This document shows positions 1 to 59,491 of a stretch of 64,000 nt of DNA, piece by piece. Both the position numbers and the translations under genes were made by a program. The stretch lies in IMG/VR virus record IMGVR_UViG_3300015371_000023; one strand, given 5' to 3'. The first letter of the stretch is position 1, and each line of letters starts with the position of its first letter. The DNA comes from an uncultured virus (IMG/VR IMGVR_UViG_3300015371_000023) (taxonomy: Duplodnaviria > Heunggongvirae > Uroviricota > Caudoviricetes). The notes beneath the pieces are model-generated. The model saw only the letters and a list, made by a program, of their open reading frames with translations, ran no database searches and was not told the DNA's origin.

Positions 1-253
1 CCAGTTCGCACACCAGCTGGTGCGCGTACCGGGCGCGGAGCCAGAATTCGGCGTCGATGCCGAGGGCCTCTTCGAGGTCGATCGCGGTGTCGGCCGTGAT
101 GGACTTCTTGCCTGTGACGATCAACGAGATCGCCTGGTACGGCCGCCCCATGGCCTTGGCGAGGTCCTGCTGCAACATGCCCCGGCTGTCCAGCTCGCCG
201 CGGAGGATCTGCCCCGGGTGCACCGGGGCGTGGTTCTGTCGTGGTTCTGTCAT
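1..253 (-). CDS. HigA-like XRE HTH protein (copy 4; runs off the window edge)
   Basis: Manual translation from ATG at 253: MTEPRQNHAPVHPGQILRGELDSRGMLQQDLAKAMGRPYQAISLIVTGKKSITADTAIDLEEALGIDAEFWL; HPG start and ITxxTAxxLxxALG..FW signature of HigA/VapI antidotes; absent from the ORF track. Confidence 0.85.
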   Translation of the reverse strand, partial: MTEPRQNHAPVHPGQILRGELDSRGMLQQDLAKAMGRPYQAISLIVTGKKSITADTAIDLEEALGIDAEFWLRARYAHQLVCEL

Positions 254-519
254 GTTGGAGGAAGCTCCCGCTCCTGTCGCCTCCGTCGGGCTTGGGCGAG
301 GTCGTACATCGCTTGGGCCCGGACCCAGAAGCCGGCATCGAGGCCCAGCGCCTTCTCCAGGTCGATGGCGGTGTCCGGGGTGATGGACTTCTTACCCGTG
401 ACGATCTCGGAGACCATTTGCGGCGGCCGCCCCATGGTCAGGGCTAGCTCCAGCTGGCTCATGCCCCGGCCGCTGAGCTCGGTGCGCAGGATCAGCCCTG
501 GGGGAGCGGGATCTGTCAT
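250..519 (-). CDS. HigA-like XRE HTH protein (copy 3)
   Basis: PPGLILRTEL..GMSQLELA..VSEIVTGKKSITPDTAIDLEKALGLDAGFWVRAQAMYDL. Confidence 0.88.
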   Translation of the reverse strand: MTDPAPPGLILRTELSGRGMSQLELALTMGRPPQMVSEIVTGKKSITPDTAIDLEKALGLDAGFWVRAQAMYDLAQARRRRQERELPPT

Positions 520-773
520 CGTTCACCGCGCCGGTAGCGGTTGTTGGCTACGTCGATGGTGATCTGTGCGACGAGCAGGTCCACGGCGGACACGCCCAGC
601 TCGTCTTCGAGCCGCACCGCGACATGCCGGCTCAGGCGGGATTTGCCGGTGACGACCTCGCTGAGATGCTTCCCGGTGATCCCGATCCGCTCCGCGCCGG
701 TCTTTTGGTTGAGCCCAGCGGCGGCGATCGCCTGCCGGATCAGCTCACCCGGTGTCTGTTCAGGGTTAGTCAT
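516..773 (-). CDS. HigA-like XRE HTH protein (copy 2)
   Basis: TPGELIRQAI..GLNQKTGAERIGITGKHLSEVVTGKSRLSRHVAVRLEDELG; 4-nt overlaps with both neighbours. Confidence 0.8.
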   Translation of the reverse strand: MTNPEQTPGELIRQAIAAAGLNQKTGAERIGITGKHLSEVVTGKSRLSRHVAVRLEDELGVSAVDLLVAQITIDVANNRYRRGER

Positions 774-1036
774 GTTTTGTGCTCCTTGAGGGCGCGCGCG
801 GCGGCGGCATCGGCCAGGGCTTGAGCGATCAGCAGAACCTCGGCGGGGACGCCGAGCACTTCATCGAGCTTGACCGCGATACCGGGGCCGAGGCGGGCGT
901 GGCCCTGGATGACCTGACTGAGGTGCTTGGCTGACATGCCGGCGCAGTCGGCGATGGCGGCTTGCGAGCGCTGCTCCGGGTCGGCCGCGATCGCGTCGAG
1001 GAGCAGCCGCCTCACCGTCGGCGGGGTCTGATTCAT
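770..1036 (-). CDS. HigA-like XRE HTH protein (copy 1)
   Basis: Start refined to ATG 1036 (MNQTPP); RSQAAIADCAGMSAKHLSQVIQGHARLGPGIAVKLDEVLG. Confidence 0.78.
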   Translation of the reverse strand: MNQTPPTVRRLLLDAIAADPEQRSQAAIADCAGMSAKHLSQVIQGHARLGPGIAVKLDEVLGVPAEVLLIAQALADAAAARALKEHKT

Positions 1037-1215
1037 TCCGCCTTCCCTGCGGCGCCGGTGAAGTTCTCTGCCGCAGCGCAGCCCCTGCACATGTCCCACT
1101 TTTGTCCACTCGCGTCCTCGAACAGCTGATCCAGCGTGAACCACTCAAGGCAGATCGCGCACATCTTGGACTTCCCGTCCGGGGAGGTCGTTAGATCGAC
1201 CCAGGGGCTACACAT
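1033..1215 (-). CDS. small Cys-rich (two CxxC) hypothetical protein
   Basis: CAIC and CRGC; translationally coupled to its neighbours. Confidence 0.55.
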   Translation of the reverse strand: MCSPWVDLTTSPDGKSKMCAICLEWFTLDQLFEDASGQKWDMCRGCAAAENFTGAAGKAE

Positions 1216-34613: not shown

Positions 34614-35618
34614 TTAGGGGGAGACCTGCTTGACGATCAGCGTGTCCATCTTGATGCTGCCTTTCGGGATGATCCCCTGGTCCGCCATCAGGTCTGGTAC
34701 GCGCTGAAGGCGCCTCGCGTCGGCGGTCGAGGAGAAGCGCGGCGCAACCATCAGCTTCGCGTCCGCGTCTTCCACCTTGGCGAACTCGACGACCAAGGGT
34801 TCCCACTTGCTGCGGTCGGCTTCCGCGAGCCGTGATGCCCTCTGCATGGCGCGTTGGAACGCGGCCATGGTGGTCGGGTTCTGCTCTGTCCACTTTGTTG
34901 TGGCGACGTACCCGAGGATCGGGAAGTCGTCTGTGCTCGTTCCCCGAGCCGCAACATCGATGACCGGCGTCGCGCCGACCGTTCGAGCCGCTTTGTGTAT
35001 GAACGGCTCCGGTTGGTAGGCGGCATCGATCTGGTTGTTTTGCAGTGCCGCCGCCATGTCGGACAGCCCCAGCTGAATCCACGTGACCTGGTGGTAGTCC
35101 TTGCCGTGAGCAGCCATCACAGCCTGGGTCAAGAGCTGGGATGTCGAGTTGGCCGACGTGATGGCGATCCTCTTACCCGGCAAGTCGTTGACCGATTTCA
35201 CCGGAGAGTTCGGGACGGTGATCAACACGTTGCTGTTGGGGTTCGCCGCCGTGCCGTCGGCAACGATCCGAAGGTCCTCCCCTTTCTTTACCGCGATGAC
35301 GAACGGCGGGTACGTCAGCTCCGCCAGGTCGGCCTCTCCGGAGATCACCTTGGACCGCGAGATGTTGGGGTTCTCCGCGAGGGTGGTCTTCACGTCGAGG
35401 CCCTCATCCCGGAAGAAGCCCAGCTTCTGCGCCATCCAGTACGGCGCGGCATCCACTGACGGTTGGATGGCTACCGTCAGCGACGTTCTCTCCAGCCCGC
35501 CGGGGCCGGGTTTCGCCGGCTCATCGCCGGAGTCTCCAAGGGCAGAACACGCACCGCTGAGGCTCACGATGGCCGCGAAAGCTATATAGGGCAACATTTT
35601 CCAACGTCTGCCAGACAT
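34614..35618 (-). CDS. ABC transporter substrate-binding lipoprotein (NitT/TauT/SsuA-like)
   Basis: Lipobox LSGAC; GFFRDEGLDV, DL.GKRIA, IDAAYQPEP. Confidence 0.9.
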   Translation of the reverse strand: MSGRRWKMLPYIAFAAIVSLSGACSALGDSGDEPAKPGPGGLERTSLTVAIQPSVDAAPYWMAQKLGFFRDEGLDVKTTLAENPNISRSKVISGEADLAELTYPPFVIAVKKGEDLRIVADGTAANPNSNVLITVPNSPVKSVNDLPGKRIAITSANSTSQLLTQAVMAAHGKDYHQVTWIQLGLSDMAAALQNNQIDAAYQPEPFIHKAARTVGATPVIDVAARGTSTDDFPILGYVATTKWTEQNPTTMAAFQRAMQRASRLAEADRSKWEPLVVEFAKVEDADAKLMVAPRFSSTADARRLQRVPDLMADQGIIPKGSIKMDTLIVKQVSP

Positions 35619-36713: not shown

Positions 36714-36908
36714 TCAGGCGATGCCGGTGAGGAACAGCGCGAACGTCTTCTGGCTGACGTCGATCACCGAACCCGGCTGCTTGGTGTCGTGGATGGCGAC
36801 CCGACCGTCCGCGGATCCGATGTTGACGCAGTTGTCGTGGTCGTCCTTGGTGCACCGCGACGCTCCGCGGAACTTGACGCTGCCGTCGAACCATTTCTTG
36901 CCGATCAC
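36714..36908 (-). CDS. DUF397 (BldB-like) protein
   Basis: FR.ASRC....NCV.IG...G.VAIHDTK.PG..F..FL.GI; GTG start after AGGAG. Confidence 0.8.
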   Translation of the reverse strand: MIGKKWFDGSVKFRGASRCTKDDHDNCVNIGSADGRVAIHDTKQPGSVIDVSQKTFALFLTGIA

Positions 36909-37201
36909 GATCTCTCCTTTTCGGTCGACGCAGGGATTCCTGCGTCCCTGTCGAACTCGCCTTTGTGGACTCCGTCCACCCAGGCCTTCCACTCGTCGGG
37001 GGTGAAAGCCATATACGTGCCGCTTCCGCGCAGCAGCGTGTACTCGTCACCCAGGAACTTGACCTTGGCGATCTGCACGCGGTCTTCCGGCGGGCCGTAC
37101 GTCTGCCAGCCGGCCACCTCTGAGGAGGCGAGGTCCGCAACGGCACGGATCAACGCGGTCGCGTCGGAAAGCTGCTCGGAGTTGTCGTCGGGCAAAGTCA
37201 T
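36905..37201 (-). CDS. DUF397 (BldB-like) protein
   Basis: WQ......VQIA..Y.LLR..FTPDEWKAWVDGVHKGEFD. Confidence 0.75.
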   Translation of the reverse strand: MTLPDDNSEQLSDATALIRAVADLASSEVAGWQTYGPPEDRVQIAKVKFLGDEYTLLRGSGTYMAFTPDEWKAWVDGVHKGEFDRDAGIPASTEKERS

Positions 37202-38585: not shown

Positions 38586-39449
38586 ATGCTCAACCGCATG
38601 GCGACGGATATGCGCGACAAGCGCCTCGGCGGGAGGCTGCGCAAGATCGCGGAGCGGGCCGGGTTGACCACCTATGTTCTGGCCGCCGAGCTGGGGCTAA
38701 GCCAGGGCCAGATCTCGAAGATCTTCAACGGCAAGCGCAAGATCAGCCAAGTTAACTTGATCAAGGCGCTTGCGCTTGCGAACGCCACTCCCGAGGAGAC
38801 GGATGGCCTACTCCGCCTCCTGAACCCGGAGGGTGGCGATCTCGACGAGTCCACCTGGGTTGCCATCCGGGCCGTGGAGCGCGACCACATGATCGGCGCC
38901 GTGATGGCCGCCGAAGAGGAAGCGAAGACCATCACGTACTTTGCCGCACTGATGGTTCCAGGACTGATCCAGACGGCTGCCTACGCTCGCGCCCAGATGG
39001 AAGCGGACGGCGTATCGCCCGCAGACGCGCGTCGATGGGTTGCGGAGCGCATTGGTCGACGGAACATCCTCGAACGCCGCGAGAACCCGGTTCACCTCGT
39101 AGCGTACTTCCACGAGGGCGTGCTACGCACCGTTATAGGTGACATCTCGGTCATGATTGAACAGCTCGAATACCTCATCGAGCTGCAAACCAAACTTGAT
39201 AACGTGACAATTCGTGTTGTCCCCTTCGCGGCAGGTAAGACGCCGTTGCAAGATGGGCAACGTCTCGTTATCGAGTCGCCGGATGCTGCGCCACTGGTTC
39301 ACTCGGATCTCCACTACGTCGGGCTGTTCCTTGAAGATCCGGCGTTGGTTGAGCGAACCACGTTGCAGATGGCGGTGCTCAACGAAAAGGCGCTGGATGC
39401 GGCCAAGTCTGCCGCGTTCATCGCCAACATCATCAGTGAGTGGAGATAA
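38586..39449 (+). CDS. Xre-family HTH regulator with DUF5753 domain (WhiJ/Scr1-like)
   Basis: LG.RLR..E..G.T...LA..LG.SQ..ISKI; VPGLIQT.AYARA; EGVL...IG...VM.EQL..L; IRVVPF. Confidence 0.92.
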   Translation: MLNRMATDMRDKRLGGRLRKIAERAGLTTYVLAAELGLSQGQISKIFNGKRKISQVNLIKALALANATPEETDGLLRLLNPEGGDLDESTWVAIRAVERDHMIGAVMAAEEEAKTITYFAALMVPGLIQTAAYARAQMEADGVSPADARRWVAERIGRRNILERRENPVHLVAYFHEGVLRTVIGDISVMIEQLEYLIELQTKLDNVTIRVVPFAAGKTPLQDGQRLVIESPDAAPLVHSDLHYVGLFLEDPALVERTTLQMAVLNEKALDAAKSAAFIANIISEWR

Positions 39450-40081: not shown

Positions 40082-40426
40082 CCGCCGGCATTGCGAGCGC
40101 GGTCGTTGGTGGCGAGCCCGGGAGGCTGGCCCTCACGGCGTCCCGGTCGTCTTCGACGGCGAGGACAGCCGCTGGGACGAGTTCGTCCGGGGTGTGCATG
40201 GAGCCGGGATGAACCTCGTTTGCCCCGAGGCCGCACCCCGGCCCCATGCTGAGTTCGGCGCGTTGCAGCTTGCCGAACTCCATTTCACCCGCGCACACGG
40301 AGACCGAACCCGCTTCACGCCACCACAGCTAAGCATCCACGAACGTGTCCGGCCATCGTCGGACAAGCATCCGGACAACTCCGGACAGGGTTGCGTCGTC
40401 CTCGCACAAATGTTCGACTGTGCGAC

Positions 40427-40858
40427 ATGGGTGCGACATGGACCTTTCCGGGCTGGTGCCCGTCGGCCACAGACGGGGAGCGGTACCGCTGGACCATCAG
40501 CTTCAAGCCCGCGGACAAGCGCTGGGCGCCACAGGAGGAGCTGATCGGCGGCCCCCCGGCCGGCGTGGACCTGGCGGCTCTACTGAAGGCCTGGTTCCAG
40601 GAGCGCGGCGGCCCGGTGGCCTGGTGGCGCCTGCGGGTGACGCCGCTGGAGGATGAGACGACGGTCCTGGCGGAGGTTGAGCTGTACTTCGCCGAGGCGG
40701 TGGTGCACAAGGTGCGGCGGCTGGGGCCGGATCGCGGGCCAGTCGCCCCGACCTACTGGACGTCGACCCGGCGGTTCCCGCCTTCGCCGGCGCAGATCCG
40801 GGCCTGGGAGACTCGCCCCGAGGGACCTCCGGAGGCTTGGAAAGCTAGATCAAGGTAA
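40427..40858 (+). CDS. hypothetical Trp/Pro-rich protein
   Basis: ATG 40427; ends at the 40860 hairpin. Confidence 0.5.
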   Translation: MGATWTFPGWCPSATDGERYRWTISFKPADKRWAPQEELIGGPPAGVDLAALLKAWFQERGGPVAWWRLRVTPLEDETTVLAEVELYFAEAVVHKVRRLGPDRGPVAPTYWTSTRRFPPSPAQIRAWETRPEGPPEAWKARSR

Positions 40859-40896
40859 TGCAGAAGGCCCCCGGTTTACGACGCCGGGGGCCTCTG

Positions 40897-40970
40897 TGGC
40901 GGGGGCAGGATTCGAACCTGCGACCTCTGGGTTATGAGCCCAGCAAGCTACCGAGCTGCTCCACCCCGCT
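40897..40970 (-). tRNA. initiator tRNA-fMet(CAU)
   Basis: Cloverleaf with anticodon arm CTGGG-CTCATAA-CCCAG (three G:C pairs) and an unpaired 1:72 position. Confidence 0.93.
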
Positions 40971-40982
40971 CCGATGATCAAC

Positions 40983-41012
40983 AGGCTACCGGAGCGGGCC
41001 GGGCCCCGGCAA
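40983..41012 (-). promoter_or_regulatory. putative housekeeping promoter of tRNA-fMet
   Basis: TTGCCG-N18-TAGCCT ending 12 nt upstream of the tRNA. Confidence 0.6.
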
Positions 41013-41013
41013 A

Positions 41014-41093
41014 GCAGAAGGCCCCGGTGTACAACGCCGGGGCCTTCTTGTCTCCGCAAGTCATCCGGAGCACGGATCAACAGGTGGAGGCTT
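41014..41093 (-). ncRNA. putative unknown small RNA (about 80 nt)
   Basis: Lies between CTGTCG-N18-TATGAT (41099-41128) and terminator copy 2; internal hairpin ATCCG-TGCTC-CGGAT closed by CTCC/GGAG. Confidence 0.45.
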
Positions 41094-41236
41094 TGGCGAT
41101 CATACCCGCGGTTCGGGGCCTCCGACAGCCGATGCAGAAGGCCCCCGGTGCGACACCGGGGGCCTTCTGATGTTCCTGCCCCGCGTAGGCGGGGAGCGTG
41201 CACTTACGTGCGTTGCGATCCTCGGGTCCCAGAGAG

Positions 41237-41387
41237 TCCCGCTGCCCCGCTTGCGCGGGGACCACGATCCTGACCGCCCCTAGCAAACGAGCGCCTCAGG
41301 TTCAGCCCCGCTGACGCGGGGAGGTCGATCTTCCGGACCACAAGCGAATGTGGACCCTCGGATCAGCCCCGCTCTCGCGGGGACGCC
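41237..41387 (-). CRISPR. cas-less degenerate type I-E mini-array: three 29-nt repeats, two 32-nt spacers (possible fourth remnant at 41171-41199)
   Basis: Minus-strand repeats GGCGTCCCCGCGAGAGCGGGGCTGATCCG (41359-41387), GACCTCCCCGCGTCAGCGGGGCTGAACCT (41298-41326), GTGGTCCCCGCGCAAGCGGGGCAGCGGGA (41237-41265); exact 61-nt period. Confidence 0.82.
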
Positions 41388-41391
41388 GACG

Positions 41392-41420
41392 AGAGTACTC
41401 CGCCGTCGAACGTGCGTCCA
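41392..41420 (-). promoter_or_regulatory. putative promoter of the mini-array
   Basis: TGGACG-N17-TACTCT ending 4 nt before the first repeat. Confidence 0.6.
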
Positions 41421-41441
41421 GGCGGACGCGGGGTAGGCGGT

Positions 41442-41648
41442 CTACCTGCGTCGGGACAACCTTTGCCCAAACCTGTACACCAGGTAGCCGGTCAGGATGG
41501 CCAATACGGGGATAGACGACCATCGGTACTCGCCGGCGGCGGCCTGGCCGATCCAGAAGCCCAGGCATACCCCCGACGCGGCCACGAGGCCGAGCGCGAT
41601 CCACGTGTCGCGCTCGGCCCGCGCCTTCGCCTTCGCCTTCGATCCCAT
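41442..41648 (-). CDS. small two-TM membrane protein
   Basis: WIALGLVAASGVCLGFWIG and IPVLAILTGYLVY; basic termini. Confidence 0.6.
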   Translation of the reverse strand: MGSKAKAKARAERDTWIALGLVAASGVCLGFWIGQAAAGEYRWSSIPVLAILTGYLVYRFGQRLSRRR

Positions 41649-41714
41649 GTACGGAGTGTGCCACCCGATGCCCTCATATGAGGGGATGGCTGCCCCGTCC
41701 GCCACCCCCGGGTT

Positions 41715-41981
41715 CGTGGGAACGCGTGGGAACAGGCTCCGGTATCGCGCCTTTTGGGTCTACGTGGCGCGACACGGTCCGACACGTTGACACGACAAAC
41801 CCGCAGGTGAGACCCTACTTCTCAGGAAACACCAGGTTAGCTCGCGCAAGTCCCGCAAAGGGCCATTCACGGGACCAGGCTCGGCGAACGGGAGAGTATC
41901 AGCAAAGGCGCAGGTCAGAGGCTCGAAGATGATCAACGAGCCCTTGGATGCGCCCTCCGTGGGAAGACATTTCCCACGGAG
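41715..41981. other. probable attP region with arm-type repeats
   Basis: CGTGGGAAC twice in direct orientation (41715, 41725) and a perfect inverted pair CTCCGTGGGAA/TTCCCACGGAG (41955-41981), just upstream of the integrase. Confidence 0.55.
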
Positions 41982-42056
41982 CTTGATCCACTCCCAGCGG
42001 CCGGGCTACGGTCACCACGGGACGCCGCGCGTGCGCAAGCGAGAAGGCAGCCCGCG

Positions 42057-43403
42057 ATGACGACGAAGACCAAGACCCGCCGCAAGCCCGCGCCGAAGAG
42101 CGAGGAGGCCGGGCCGGAGCAGCTGCCCCCCAGCGGCCGGTACCGCATTTACTATTGGCACCCGATCAAGAAGAAGAAGATCTGGGTCCGGAACCCCGAG
42201 CCCGGCTCCCGCGGGACGTGGCCCACGCCCGAGTCCGCCCTTCTGGCGCGGGAGGAGTTCAAGGCCCGGCTTGACGGGGCGTTGATCGCCCAGGGTGTCC
42301 CCGTGCAGCGCCAGACCCACCGGCCGAACGTCCCCACAGTCACCGAGGTGATCGACGCGTGGTTGCCGCTTCAGGACGGTACCAAGCAGACCTGCGCCAC
42401 CCGCACGTCCGTGGTGGGGGCGTTCAAGCGGCAGTGGCCCGACCTGCCTATCGATGAGCTGGACAAAGACACCTACGTGAAGTGGGACCTCGCGGAGAAG
42501 GATGCCGGCCGGTCGACGTCGACCCGATCTCAGCGGCTGATCTACATGGGGCAGATCATCCGGTGGGCCGTCAAGAAGGAGTGGCGGAAAGACGACTTCA
42601 CCGAGGACATGAAGGCGATCCGCGTTCGCCGGACCATCCGACCGGAGATCTTGACGTTCTCCAACTTCATCGCCCTGACGTATCACCTGGACTTCTGGGC
42701 TCTTCCGGCTCTGGTGCTGGCCTACGAGTGCGGGATGCGGGCAGGGGAGATCACCGGCCTCACCTGGCAGCGGATCGACCTCGACGGGCCTAACCCCAGC
42801 GTGCTCGTCCGCGACGTCATGGAGAACGACCTCACCACCCGACCCAATACGAAGGGTGGCGGCGAGGAGGGGGAACGCAGGGTCAGTCTCAGTCCATACG
42901 CGGTGCAGCTCCTCCGGGGGATCCGCGATTGGCGCGGCGACGGTCCGGAGGATTTCGTGATCCGCAACAGCCGCAACAACCCGGTGTATGCGGCGTACCT
43001 CGGCCGCCGGTTCCGGGTTGCCTGGCGTCGAGCGTCGGAACTCGGTGAGGTCACCGGCCCGCGGCCCCGCTTTCACGACCTCCGCCACACCGTCGGGACC
43101 GGCCTGGCGGCGGCCGGGGCGCCGATCACCGTCATCATGGATATCCTCGGACACAGCAGCACGAGGATGACGAAGGGGTACCTGCGGGATGCGCAGCTCC
43201 CGGAGATCGCCGCGTGGATGAACGTCGTGGCCCAGCGGCACGAGGTGGCGCCCGTGAGCTACCTGCCTACCCCGGAGCCCGAGTCCACCACCCTGGACCA
43301 GTTGGCAACCTCCGTCGGCCTCGATGCCGATGCGGTGATCACCATCGTTGCGGAACTCGGCCGGCGGGGACTCCTGCGGCAGGACCTCGACCTCGCGGCG
43401 TAG
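42057..43403 (+). CDS. int: tyrosine integrase
   Basis: GMRAGEITGL.W, FHDLRHT, ILGHSS..MT..Y catalytic motifs. Confidence 0.95.
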   Translation: MTTKTKTRRKPAPKSEEAGPEQLPPSGRYRIYYWHPIKKKKIWVRNPEPGSRGTWPTPESALLAREEFKARLDGALIAQGVPVQRQTHRPNVPTVTEVIDAWLPLQDGTKQTCATRTSVVGAFKRQWPDLPIDELDKDTYVKWDLAEKDAGRSTSTRSQRLIYMGQIIRWAVKKEWRKDDFTEDMKAIRVRRTIRPEILTFSNFIALTYHLDFWALPALVLAYECGMRAGEITGLTWQRIDLDGPNPSVLVRDVMENDLTTRPNTKGGGEEGERRVSLSPYAVQLLRGIRDWRGDGPEDFVIRNSRNNPVYAAYLGRRFRVAWRRASELGEVTGPRPRFHDLRHTVGTGLAAAGAPITVIMDILGHSSTRMTKGYLRDAQLPEIAAWMNVVAQRHEVAPVSYLPTPEPESTTLDQLATSVGLDADAVITIVAELGRRGLLRQDLDLAA

Positions 43404-47268: not shown

Positions 47269-47840
47269 TGGCCGGCGACCTGGGCGACTACAACGACGTC
47301 GCCACGCGGATCGCGGAGTTCCGTACGAAGTGGCCCGAAGGCTGCCTCCGGCCGGCGGACCTTGACACGCCGTACGCCATCGAGCACATCGGAGAGCAGG
47401 CGTACATCGTCGTCGTGGCTGCCGCGTACCGGACCCCCGAGGATCCGACCCCTGGTGTTGGCATGGCCTACGAGCCCGTACCCGGCCGCACGCCCTACAC
47501 GAAGTTTTCTGAGCTCCAGAACGCGGAGACCGCCGCGTGGGGGCGCGCGATCGTCGCTGCGCTGGCGGCTGATACCCGCAAGGGGGTTGCCTCCCACGAG
47601 GAAGTCCGCAACCGCACGGCCGAACGGGACGTCGACCCGGAAGCGGAAGTCTTGCGAGCCCAGATCAAGGCCCTTGCCGCCGTGCGAAAGTGGCCGCTGC
47701 GCGACGTTGCGCATGAGTTCGACCTGCACACCGGCGGCGATATCCGTGACGCGTCAGCAGAGGAGCTCACGCGCTTCCTGACAGACCTCCGTGCTGTCGG
47801 GATGGGTGTTTCGCTCGCCAGCGGCGAGGAGGCCTCATGA
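47268..47840 (+). CDS. putative single-strand annealing recombinase
   Basis: DY.DVA.RI.EFR.K.PEG, ELQNAETAAWGRAI, ASHEEV. Confidence 0.65.
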   Translation: MAGDLGDYNDVATRIAEFRTKWPEGCLRPADLDTPYAIEHIGEQAYIVVVAAAYRTPEDPTPGVGMAYEPVPGRTPYTKFSELQNAETAAWGRAIVAALAADTRKGVASHEEVRNRTAERDVDPEAEVLRAQIKALAAVRKWPLRDVAHEFDLHTGGDIRDASAEELTRFLTDLRAVGMGVSLASGEEAS

Positions 47841-48064
47841 CCGGCCTCACTCACACGCAGCAGGGCATCATGCACTACCTGCGTACCTACATCAAGGATG
47901 TGGGTTACCCGCCCAGCGTCCAGGAGATCGCCGACGGCGTGAAGCTCCGCTCCAAGTCGTCGGTTCTGTACCAGCTGCGGACCCTCGAAGCCCTCGGCCA
48001 CATCCGCCGTGACCACAACAGGCCGCGTGGGCTGGTGATCCTGGCGGAAGAGGCGACGCCGTGA
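47837..48064 (+). CDS. LexA N-terminal-like winged HTH protein (no protease domain)
   Basis: GYPPSVQEIA..V.L.S.SSV.YQL..LE..G.IRR....PRG. Confidence 0.88.
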   Translation: MTGLTHTQQGIMHYLRTYIKDVGYPPSVQEIADGVKLRSKSSVLYQLRTLEALGHIRRDHNRPRGLVILAEEATP

Positions 48065-59415: not shown

Positions 59416-59491
59416 TGGTACCGCCTGCGGGACTCGAACCCGCGACCTGACCCCTATAAAAGGCGCGCTCTGCCGACTGAGCTAAGGCGGC
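59416..59491 (-). tRNA. degenerate tRNA with anticodon UAU (Ile) on a Thr-like body
   Basis: GCCGCCT/AGGCGGT acceptor with encoded CCA; intact D and T arms; weak anticodon stem CGCCT/GGGTC, loop TTTATAG. Confidence 0.7.

Follow-up and report, generated by a model that had tools for sequence, protein, structure and literature searches.

The phage DNA analyzed in this study carries, beside its integrase gene, a compact locus of 29-nt repeats, which as far as its sequence goes has its origin in a CRISPR array of type I-E. To the explanation of its function that we prefer, we give roughly even credence: the cas-less cassette might produce crRNA-like RNAs for the Cas6e and Cascade proteins of the host, and these would act as an RNA anti-CRISPR or as a guide of the Cracr or Racr type.

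The window, that is, the whole 64-kb stretch of DNA analyzed, has a G+C content of 66% and contains a tailed-phage gene set, including genes encoding a terminase small subunit, an SPP1-type portal, a major head protein, a tail tube, and a tape measure protein of 2,388 aa. Additionally, we found genes for an M15 peptidase, an excisionase-like HTH protein, an HTH_31/DUF5753 regulator, and a DUF397 protein. The nearest named relative of the tyrosine integrase (57% identical) was from Amycolatopsis sp., and the portal was at most about 52% identical to the portals of Gordonia phages. The window is a temperate phage of an actinomycete, and the actinomycete host is probably filamentous. A DNA-level search of deposited phages yielded no close relative of the window. 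The integrase, searched against IMG/VR singly and as a four-sequence alignment, recovered its own contig only; a search of genome contigs with the integrase gave no match, and none of 401 family genomes had one at E <= 1e-60 (four candidates scored per genome). Of the 401 class genomes, 62 had a match to the DUF5753/HTH_31 protein, with identities of about 30-35%; this tally includes the unpublished genome G020.

The same element was recovered as an IMG/VR record (G001), with 100% identity across 40800-42100, and the same phage as a metagenome contig (L378), with one mismatch in 6,087 bases. The array was identical in every phage copy seen (G001, L378, and X4), with no variation of the spacers among these copies. 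Searching IMG/VR and metagenomes with a unit-specific pattern also led to the same phage only (L378), the remaining 10 metagenome loci being genuine arrays or unrelated hairpins. No Cas family was detected among the 86 ORFs of the window by a Pfam scan, which agrees with the sequence-only reading of this DNA.

The features of the locus are compiled in Table 1.

Table 1. Features of the repeat locus and its surroundings, with positions in the 64-kb window.
Feature	Position	Strand	Description
Tyrosine integrase	42057..43403	+	phrog_1 3.2e-51; PF00589; marks the lysogeny region
Small membrane ORF, 68 aa	41442..41648	-	Two hydrophobic stretches; GC3 0.85; upstream of the array, same strand
Relic repeat R0	41410..41438	-	Hairpin 41418-41433 with 2 mismatches, folds as a shifted stem
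Candidate promoter pair	41392..41420	-	TGGACG-17 nt-TACTCT; by eye, weak; ends 4 nt before R1
Repeat R1	41359..41387	-	GGCGT-CCCCGCGAGAGCGGGG-CTGATCCG; intact I-E-type 5' handle; hairpin -14.8 kcal/mol
Spacer-like S1, 32 nt	41327..41358	-	Last 13 nt (41327-41339) leader-end-like; 7-of-8 inverted repeat inside
Repeat R2	41298..41326	-	GACCT-CCCCGCGTCAGCGGGG-CTGAACCT; I-E-type handle; hairpin -12.9 kcal/mol
Spacer-like S2, 32 nt	41266..41297	-	Last 10 nt (41266-41275, GGTCAGGATC) leader-end-like
Repeat R3	41237..41265	-	GTGGT-CCCCGCGCAAGCGGGG-CAGCGGGA; handle decayed like that of a terminal repeat; hairpin -15.0 kcal/mol
Interval S3, 37 nt	41200..41236	-	Extra small hairpin GCAC-GTAA-GTGC; 6/11 against the leader-end motif
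Repeat R4	41171..41199	-	ACGCT-CCCCGCCTACGCGGGG-CAGGAACA; fourth copy, handle decayed; hairpin -13.3 kcal/mol
Strong hairpin 3' of R4	41135..41169	-	16 bp, -34.6 kcal/mol, z = -8.2; likely factor-independent terminator
Similar hairpin	41016-41048		-27.1 kcal/mol; brackets tRNA-Met
tRNA-Met (CAT), initiator-like	40896..40970	-	62.7 bits; downstream of the array, same strand
Similar hairpin	40861-40895		-26.3 kcal/mol; brackets tRNA-Met

Four 29-nt repeats (R1 to R4) were identified on the minus strand, all within 217 nt and with start-to-start spacings of 61, 61, and 66 nt, so that two of the three intervals have the canonical 61-nt period (29+32). The sequence-only reading had described three such repeats, with TCCCCGCG-NN-AGCGGGG at a 61-nt period; these are present as R1 to R3, but its count has to be raised by a fourth full repeat, R4, which lies 66 nt further on. 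Its two 32-nt spacers were recovered with exactly the sequences given, as were the I-E-like 8-nt handles of R1 and R2 that precede them, and the decay that it saw in the handle of its last repeat, R3, extends to R4. The hairpin of relic R0, a possible fifth repeat, is found 51 nt upstream of R1. The array is spanned by no ORF, and its 61-nt period is not divisible by 3.

All four repeats fold into an invariant hairpin of the form CCCCGC-N4-GCGGGG with a 6-bp stem and a 4-nt loop (-12.9 to -15.0 kcal/mol). This hairpin sequence occurred four times in the 64 kb, in every case at the array locus (expected 0.09 copies), and among 100 shuffled sequences none had four copies and none had more than one. 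Hairpins with up to two mismatches were at the chance level over the whole window (31 versus 24.95 +/- 4.98, with 12 of 100 shuffles reaching 31). Scatter of a REP-like kind, which the earlier reading had named, for host genomes, as an argument against itself, was accordingly not seen in the window. When the whole locus was folded as RNA, the repeats paired mainly with one another, and the fold was uninformative.

We compared the locus with genuine type I-E arrays. A search of species-representative genomes for this hairpin with a trailing CTGA(A/T)CC revealed genuine long arrays in several actinomycetes, including Thermocrispum agreste, Actinokineospora auranticolor, Amycolatopsis spp., Streptomyces spp., and Kitasatospora misakiensis. 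R1 agreed with the T. agreste array repeat (L302) at 26 of 29 positions and R2 shared 24 of 29 positions with a genuine repeat of the CTGAACCG type, and the host's own repeats may differ from both; in genome G003, the repeats of one array (L400) were 100% identical to the first 21 nt of R3. The handles of R1 and R2 occur in real actinomycete I-E arrays and those of R3 and R4 do not, a match that is not independent evidence because the genuine arrays were chosen by their handle. In a scan of viral contigs that was unbiased with respect to the handle, I-E handles generally had the form xTGAxCCx, to which R1 and R2 conform and from which R3 and R4 deviate. In addition, Cse1 was found above the Pfam cut-off in five of five actinomycete genomes whose repeats and handles are of this type; such actinomycetes, at least, do have type I-E systems, which the earlier reading had feared the hosts might lack. 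The genuine actinomycete arrays have the same stem as the phage locus, repeats of the same 29-nt length, a 61-nt period, and the CTGATCC/CTGAACC handles, whereas they differ from it in their near-identical repeats, their many unrelated spacers, and the presence of cas genes in the genome.

The minus-strand repeats have the same orientation as the flanking ORF, the tRNA, and the terminator hairpins. As well-folded a structure as that of any of the three flanking hairpins was obtained in none of 200 shuffles; these hairpins have no T-run, and therefore a terminator consensus scan makes no call on them. The downstream terminator of the sequence-only reading can be retained as the strong hairpin at 41135-41169, but not as a T-run terminator on which the consensus scan would agree. 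Its promoter abutting R1 could not be upheld, since a consensus scan of 40700-42200 gave no promoter-like site and only the weak pair in Table 1 was noticed by eye. The 68-aa ORF had no homologue except itself among 5.8 billion proteins. An Rfam scan of 40700-42200 for a hidden attP or tRNA fragment detected only the tRNA-Met above threshold.

A diverged relative was found in X9, an isolate-like sequencing run, in which the tRNA flank (40915-40996) showed no differences. On a single X9 contig, this flank and the sequence corresponding to 41748-41854 were 291 nt apart, compared with 751 nt in the window, and no X9 sequence matched 41053-41520 at >=80% likeness. Going by these contig coordinates, on which the comparison rests, the terminators and the array cassette are probably missing from the X9 relative, and the cassette therefore looks like an accessory insertion. 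Relatives without the array thus appear to exist, and they would permit a clean comparison.

The spacer-like segments S1 and S2 do not look, by their composition, like ordinary acquired spacers. They are alike at 17 of 32 positions (P ~0.003 against random 32-mers of the window) and, after removal of the common GATC end, at 13 of 28 positions (P ~0.03). In 18 genuine actinomycete leaders, GGTCA(G/A)GAAGT stands immediately before the first repeat. S1 terminates in GGTCCGGAAGATC, abutting R2, and S2 in GGTCAGGATC, abutting R3; against the leader-end 11-mer GGTCAGGAAGT, they score 9/11 and 8/11, respectively. Among 1,239 genuine spacers drawn from 57 GC-rich arrays, one reached the score of S1 and 17 reached that of S2. 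The motif was spotted post hoc, yet it was defined on independent sequences. In genuine arrays, a long leader precedes the first repeat and no other, whereas the leader-end motif recurs inside the phage units, before R2 and R3, and upstream of R1 we found neither a GGTCAGGAAGT-like motif nor a leader. Because the ends of S1 and S2 copy the leader end, only about 22 nt per unit are unique. The likeness between S1 and S2, together with this motif, suggests a regulatory or decoy RNA rather than an immune memory against competitors, and the presence of the motif within both segments hints at an undescribed link to the leader or to adaptation.

Searches for targets covered phages, the window itself, and actinomycete genomes. 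Against 50,697 deposited phage records, S1 had no protospacer and S2 had only 22-nt matches in coliphages (E = 3). Against IMG/VR, with 20 PAM-proximal positions specified, both segments matched only the phage's own contig. Within the window, the best seed runs of S1, S2, and S3 were 7, 9, and 8 nt, compared with shuffle means of 8.2-8.6. No match above chance was found for S1 to S3 in the sequence within 1.5 kb of cse1 (six loci in five I-E actinomycetes), where the longest seed runs reached at most 9, the chance level, in sampled genomes that may not include the host.

In the order of G002, 43 of 401 genomes had BLAST matches to S2+R3 at E <= 0.01. The 12 loci inspected were rejected as targets, four of them being array repeats and eight being chance matches with no array; seven of these eight had no hairpin match, and one (L398) had a lone near-match 6 nt from the BLAST match. 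Similarly, in the family of G784, S1+R2+S2 matched 8 of 401 genomes, and these matches were rejected as two array repeats and six chance matches with no array, five with no hairpin match and one (L411) with a lone near-match 11 nt from the BLAST match. The target searches sampled these 802 actinomycete genomes, among which the host is perhaps not represented. The spacer matches that the sequence-only reading had proposed to look for were found neither in phages and IMG/VR nor in the 802 genomes and the six cse1 loci. None of the uses that it had suggested, namely attack on competitors, silencing of promoters, or titration of Cas proteins, could be shown, and no protospacer came to light in the searched sequence. 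With about 22 unique nt per unit and no full protospacer in that sequence, an anti-CRISPR role is the most likely use.

These results bear on the possibility that the locus is an ordinary viral mini-array, whose spacers would be true guides and would let the prophage use the host Cascade-Cas3 against related phages or plasmids (superinfection exclusion). The canonical 29+32 geometry, the two intact handles followed by a decayed terminal handle, and the situation in the lysogeny region beside the integrase all agree with such an array. We nevertheless consider it unlikely, as S1 and S2 have no protospacer in the phage records or, apart from the phage's own contig, in IMG/VR, resemble each other more than random 32-mers do, both end in a leader-end motif almost never seen in acquired spacers, and are invariant among the phage copies seen. 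Four features favor an anti-CRISPR RNA over immune memory: the searches yielded no target, the spacer-like segments are partly fixed, the repeats are heterogeneous, and the array is situated in the lysogeny region.

The repeats are also informative in the way they diverge. Pairwise identity among R1 to R4 was 16-23 of 29 positions, with differing loops and 5' flanks, and not the near-identity expected of an I-E array. Fifteen of 29 columns were invariant in all four copies, and these comprised the stem, one base on each side of it, and one base of the handle. All 12 stem positions were unchanged in the four copies, and no covariation was seen in the stem. Cas6e reads the sequence of the repeat stem. 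The retention of the stems without covariation indicates that the sequence itself, and not just the pairing, has been kept, which fits a sequence-reading partner such as Cas6e. This pattern of conservation fits neither a terminator nor a neutral relic. With only the Cas6e stem kept and the rest drifting, the locus could serve as a naturally occurring map of the requirements of the host protein.

A piece of a host array that was gained by illegitimate recombination and is now decaying without a function would produce heterogeneous repeats, two decayed handles, the relic R0, and the odd 37-nt interval, and it would be in keeping with the lack of a leader and of targets and with an X9 relative that seems to manage without the array. 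However, neutral drift that randomized the loops, 5' flanks, and spacers would not spare 12 stem positions in each of four copies, and the cassette is neatly placed, with an ORF on one side and a strong terminator hairpin on the other. Simple decay is, in our view, improbable.

The leader-like ends raise the further possibility that the phage units mimic a leader-repeat junction, so that Cascade would be guided onto host CRISPR leaders, or so that the DNA would act as a decoy or an ectopic integration site for Cas1-Cas2. A sequence resembling the motif shared by the 18 genuine leaders stands directly before R2 and R3, and the end of S2 together with R3 follows the leader-repeat junction of L138 almost colinearly. 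On the other hand, the final 2-3 nt before the repeat are ATC or TC in the phage units and AGT in the genuine motif, and the 21 nt upstream of the leader-like ends match none of the 18 leaders (best 10-11/21, the chance level). Nor did the 401 + 401 sampled genomes yield a CRISPR leader that matches S1 or S2; R1 has no such motif upstream, and the motif was noted post hoc. This mimicry is quite doubtful. If true, it would be an anti-CRISPR aimed at the control region of the array instead of at cas promoters or Cas proteins, and it would block pre-crRNA transcription and spacer uptake at their source or supply false Cas1-Cas2 sites.

It is very improbable that the 16-bp palindromes have nothing to do with CRISPR and serve as protein-binding sites (repressor operators or integrase/attP arms), terminators, or REP-like elements: their half-sites form perfect inverted repeats with a centre-to-centre distance of 10 bp, they lie about six helical turns from one another and 670 bp from the integrase gene, and the same hairpin sequence, followed by a CTGATCC tail, is present in single copy at non-CRISPR sites of Streptomyces genomes (for example, the conserved 5' region in L284, L289, L298, and L335), but such roles leave unexplained the 29+32 geometry, the I-E handles of R1 and R2, the leader-end motif, and the 26/29 and 21/21 matches to genuine repeats, and the locus is downstream of an ORF and not at a promoter, with no further copies in the 64 kb and, apart from the tRNA, no Rfam family above threshold.

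Under the preferred explanation, that of crRNA-like RNAs made for host Cas proteins, the course of events can be proposed from the anatomy of the locus. The array would be transcribed on the minus strand, either jointly with the small membrane ORF or immediately behind it, as far as the strong hairpin beyond R4, where transcription would end. Host Cas6e might recognize the invariant CCCCGC/GCGGGG stems and cleave at their 3' base. Cleavage would yield two 61-nt crRNA-like RNAs, one composed of the R1 handle, S1, and the R2 hairpin and the other of the R2 handle, S2, and the R3 hairpin, and the R3/R4 portion would give hairpin-bearing by-products with bad handles. Both crRNA-like RNAs could load into the host Cascade, where they might occupy Cas6e and Cascade subunits, or direct Cascade, with no cleavage, to a site in the host that matches in part, or both. 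Counting against this explanation, the repeats diverge far more than those of working arrays, and the locus has no consensus promoter, no leader upstream of R1, and no target for S1 to S3 in the searched sequence; among the sequencing runs listed for the stretch, none was an RNA run.

Cas-less CRISPR repeats in phages are now recognized as RNA anti-CRISPRs (Racr and Cracr) or as inter-virus weapons, and the locus described here is an added case of such phage-borne repeat RNAs. Tested cases of Racr, Cracr, and inter-virus arrays come from Pseudomonadota, Bacillota, and archaea, and the present locus contributes a clear case from an actinophage, in which the I-E geometry is canonical. Virus-borne mini-CRISPR arrays were reportedly described by Medvedeva et al. 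in 2019 as being used in conflict between viruses.

The locus closely resembles Cracr, the viral crRNA-like anti-CRISPR RNAs, which in the report by Liu et al. (bioRxiv 10.1101/2024.10.29.618823) include an I-E array of a Salmonella prophage. The same report describes phage type I-E Cracr arrays with two or three spacer-like units and places Actinomycetota among the target phyla (10.1101/2024.10.29.618823). Cracr arrays, as presented there (10.1101/2024.10.29.618823), are like our locus in being phage-borne and cas-less, in having two or three spacer-like units and degenerate I-E repeat-like sequences, in their defective last unit, and in the expected cleavage by Cas6e, with Cascade occupied or redirected. 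In contrast, the spacer-like parts of the I-E Cracrs are given as 21-24 nt, compared with 32 nt in the phage locus (about 22 unique and 10 leader-end-like), and Cracr spacers are reported to match host CreR or casA promoters over at least 9 PAM-proximal bp (10.1101/2024.10.29.618823), whereas the phage locus gave no match to a cas promoter at six loci.

Racrs are solitary-repeat RNA anti-CRISPRs, two of which, of type I-E, inhibit a Pseudomonas I-E system according to Camara-Wilpert et al. (2023, PMC10651486). Like the phage locus, they are viral copies of host CRISPR repeats that keep the Cas6-binding hairpin (PMC10651486). The Racr finder outlined there drops repeats clustered within 100 bp (PMC10651486), whereas the phage locus has four to five units at crRNA spacing; it is not solitary, with four units within 217 nt, two of them with usable handles. 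Virus-borne mini-CRISPR arrays, as covered in PMC11656645, resemble the phage locus in having one or two spacers, in lacking cas genes, and in depending on host Cas proteins. In that account, their repeats are identical to those of the host and their spacers match related viruses (PMC11656645), whereas the repeats of the phage locus are alike at only 16-23 of 29 positions and no viral target of its spacers was found in the phage records or in IMG/VR.

In a distant-mode search of 50,697 deposited phage genomes, the array gave two chance-level matches and no similar array, and cultured actinophages therefore seem to lack one. Neighboring genes were considered at ten other GC-rich viral loci, where 44 of 90 ORFs were tested, overlapping or shorter ORFs and two loci with hairpins inside a long ORF being excluded; no Cas family was detected by Pfam in these 44 ORFs, which came from eight loci. 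None of the ten other loci had a tRNA within 3 kb, and adjacency to a tRNA was rejected as a general feature. Among the matches listed, several GC-rich viral arrays had heterogeneous repeats with short, irregular spacing. At least 123 viral contigs carried two or more such hairpins 60-62 nt apart, and many of these represented arrays of 2-5 repeats.

Groups of four to five stem-loops of the I-E type were also found on each of the GC-rich viral contigs L193, L199, L226, L210, L156, and L130. The loops of these hairpins differ and their spacing is irregular, ranging from 43 to 62 nt, and none of the Cas families looked for was found in the tested flanks of these contigs. These hairpin sets possibly represent short-spacer crRNA-like arrays of actinophages.

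Single hairpins of the array type, followed by the CTGATCC tail known from genuine actinomycete I-E repeats, were identified in the genomes of four Streptomyces species (L284, L289, L298, and L335), where the hairpin is located in a conserved 5' region with divergent genes on either side. This occurrence indicates that one copy of the motif does not prove a CRISPR origin.

In the phage, the tRNA-Met gene and the array are flanked by three much-alike, highly stable hairpins, which resemble the borders of a module. The anticodon stem of this tRNA contains three G-C pairs, and the tRNA shows a first-pair mismatch in the Rfam alignment; by these features, it resembles an initiator tRNA. Additionally, contigs from an isolate-like sequencing run (X9) matched window positions 40406-42823, representing a diverged relative of the region containing the tRNA, the small ORF, and the integrase. 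This relative seems to lack the array cassette, and it provides a pointer to the host genus.

The window harbored a second tRNA, which is ochre-suppressor-like and carried by a GC-rich phage, as well as several protein-coding genes. The gene encoding an NMT1/THI5-like protein looks like a host-like accessory gene on the phage. Relatives of the HTH_31/DUF5753 regulator were identified in 62 of the 401 sampled genomes of the class (a count that takes in the unpublished genome G020), for the most part large genomes.

Positions of the tRNAs, stable hairpins, and other genes in the window
Feature	Position	Strand	Evidence or sequence
Three tandem HTH_3 genes, window left end	250-1144	-	Pfam scan
NMT1/THI5-like periplasmic substrate-binding protein	34614-35618	-	PF09084, 1.2e-29
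DUF397 protein	36714-36992	-	Pfam scan
HTH_31/DUF5753 regulator	38586-39449	+	Pfam scan
Three stable hairpins	40861-40895, 41016-41048, 41135-41169		CAGAAGGCCCC...GGGGCCTTCTG; -26 to -35 kcal/mol
tRNA-Met(CAT)	40896-40970	-	Aligned to Rfam
LexA DNA-binding domain, stand-alone 75-aa protein	47837-48064	+	Pfam scan
tRNA-Stop, anticodon TTA	59416-59491	-	ARAGORN call; Rfam tRNA score 56.9 bits
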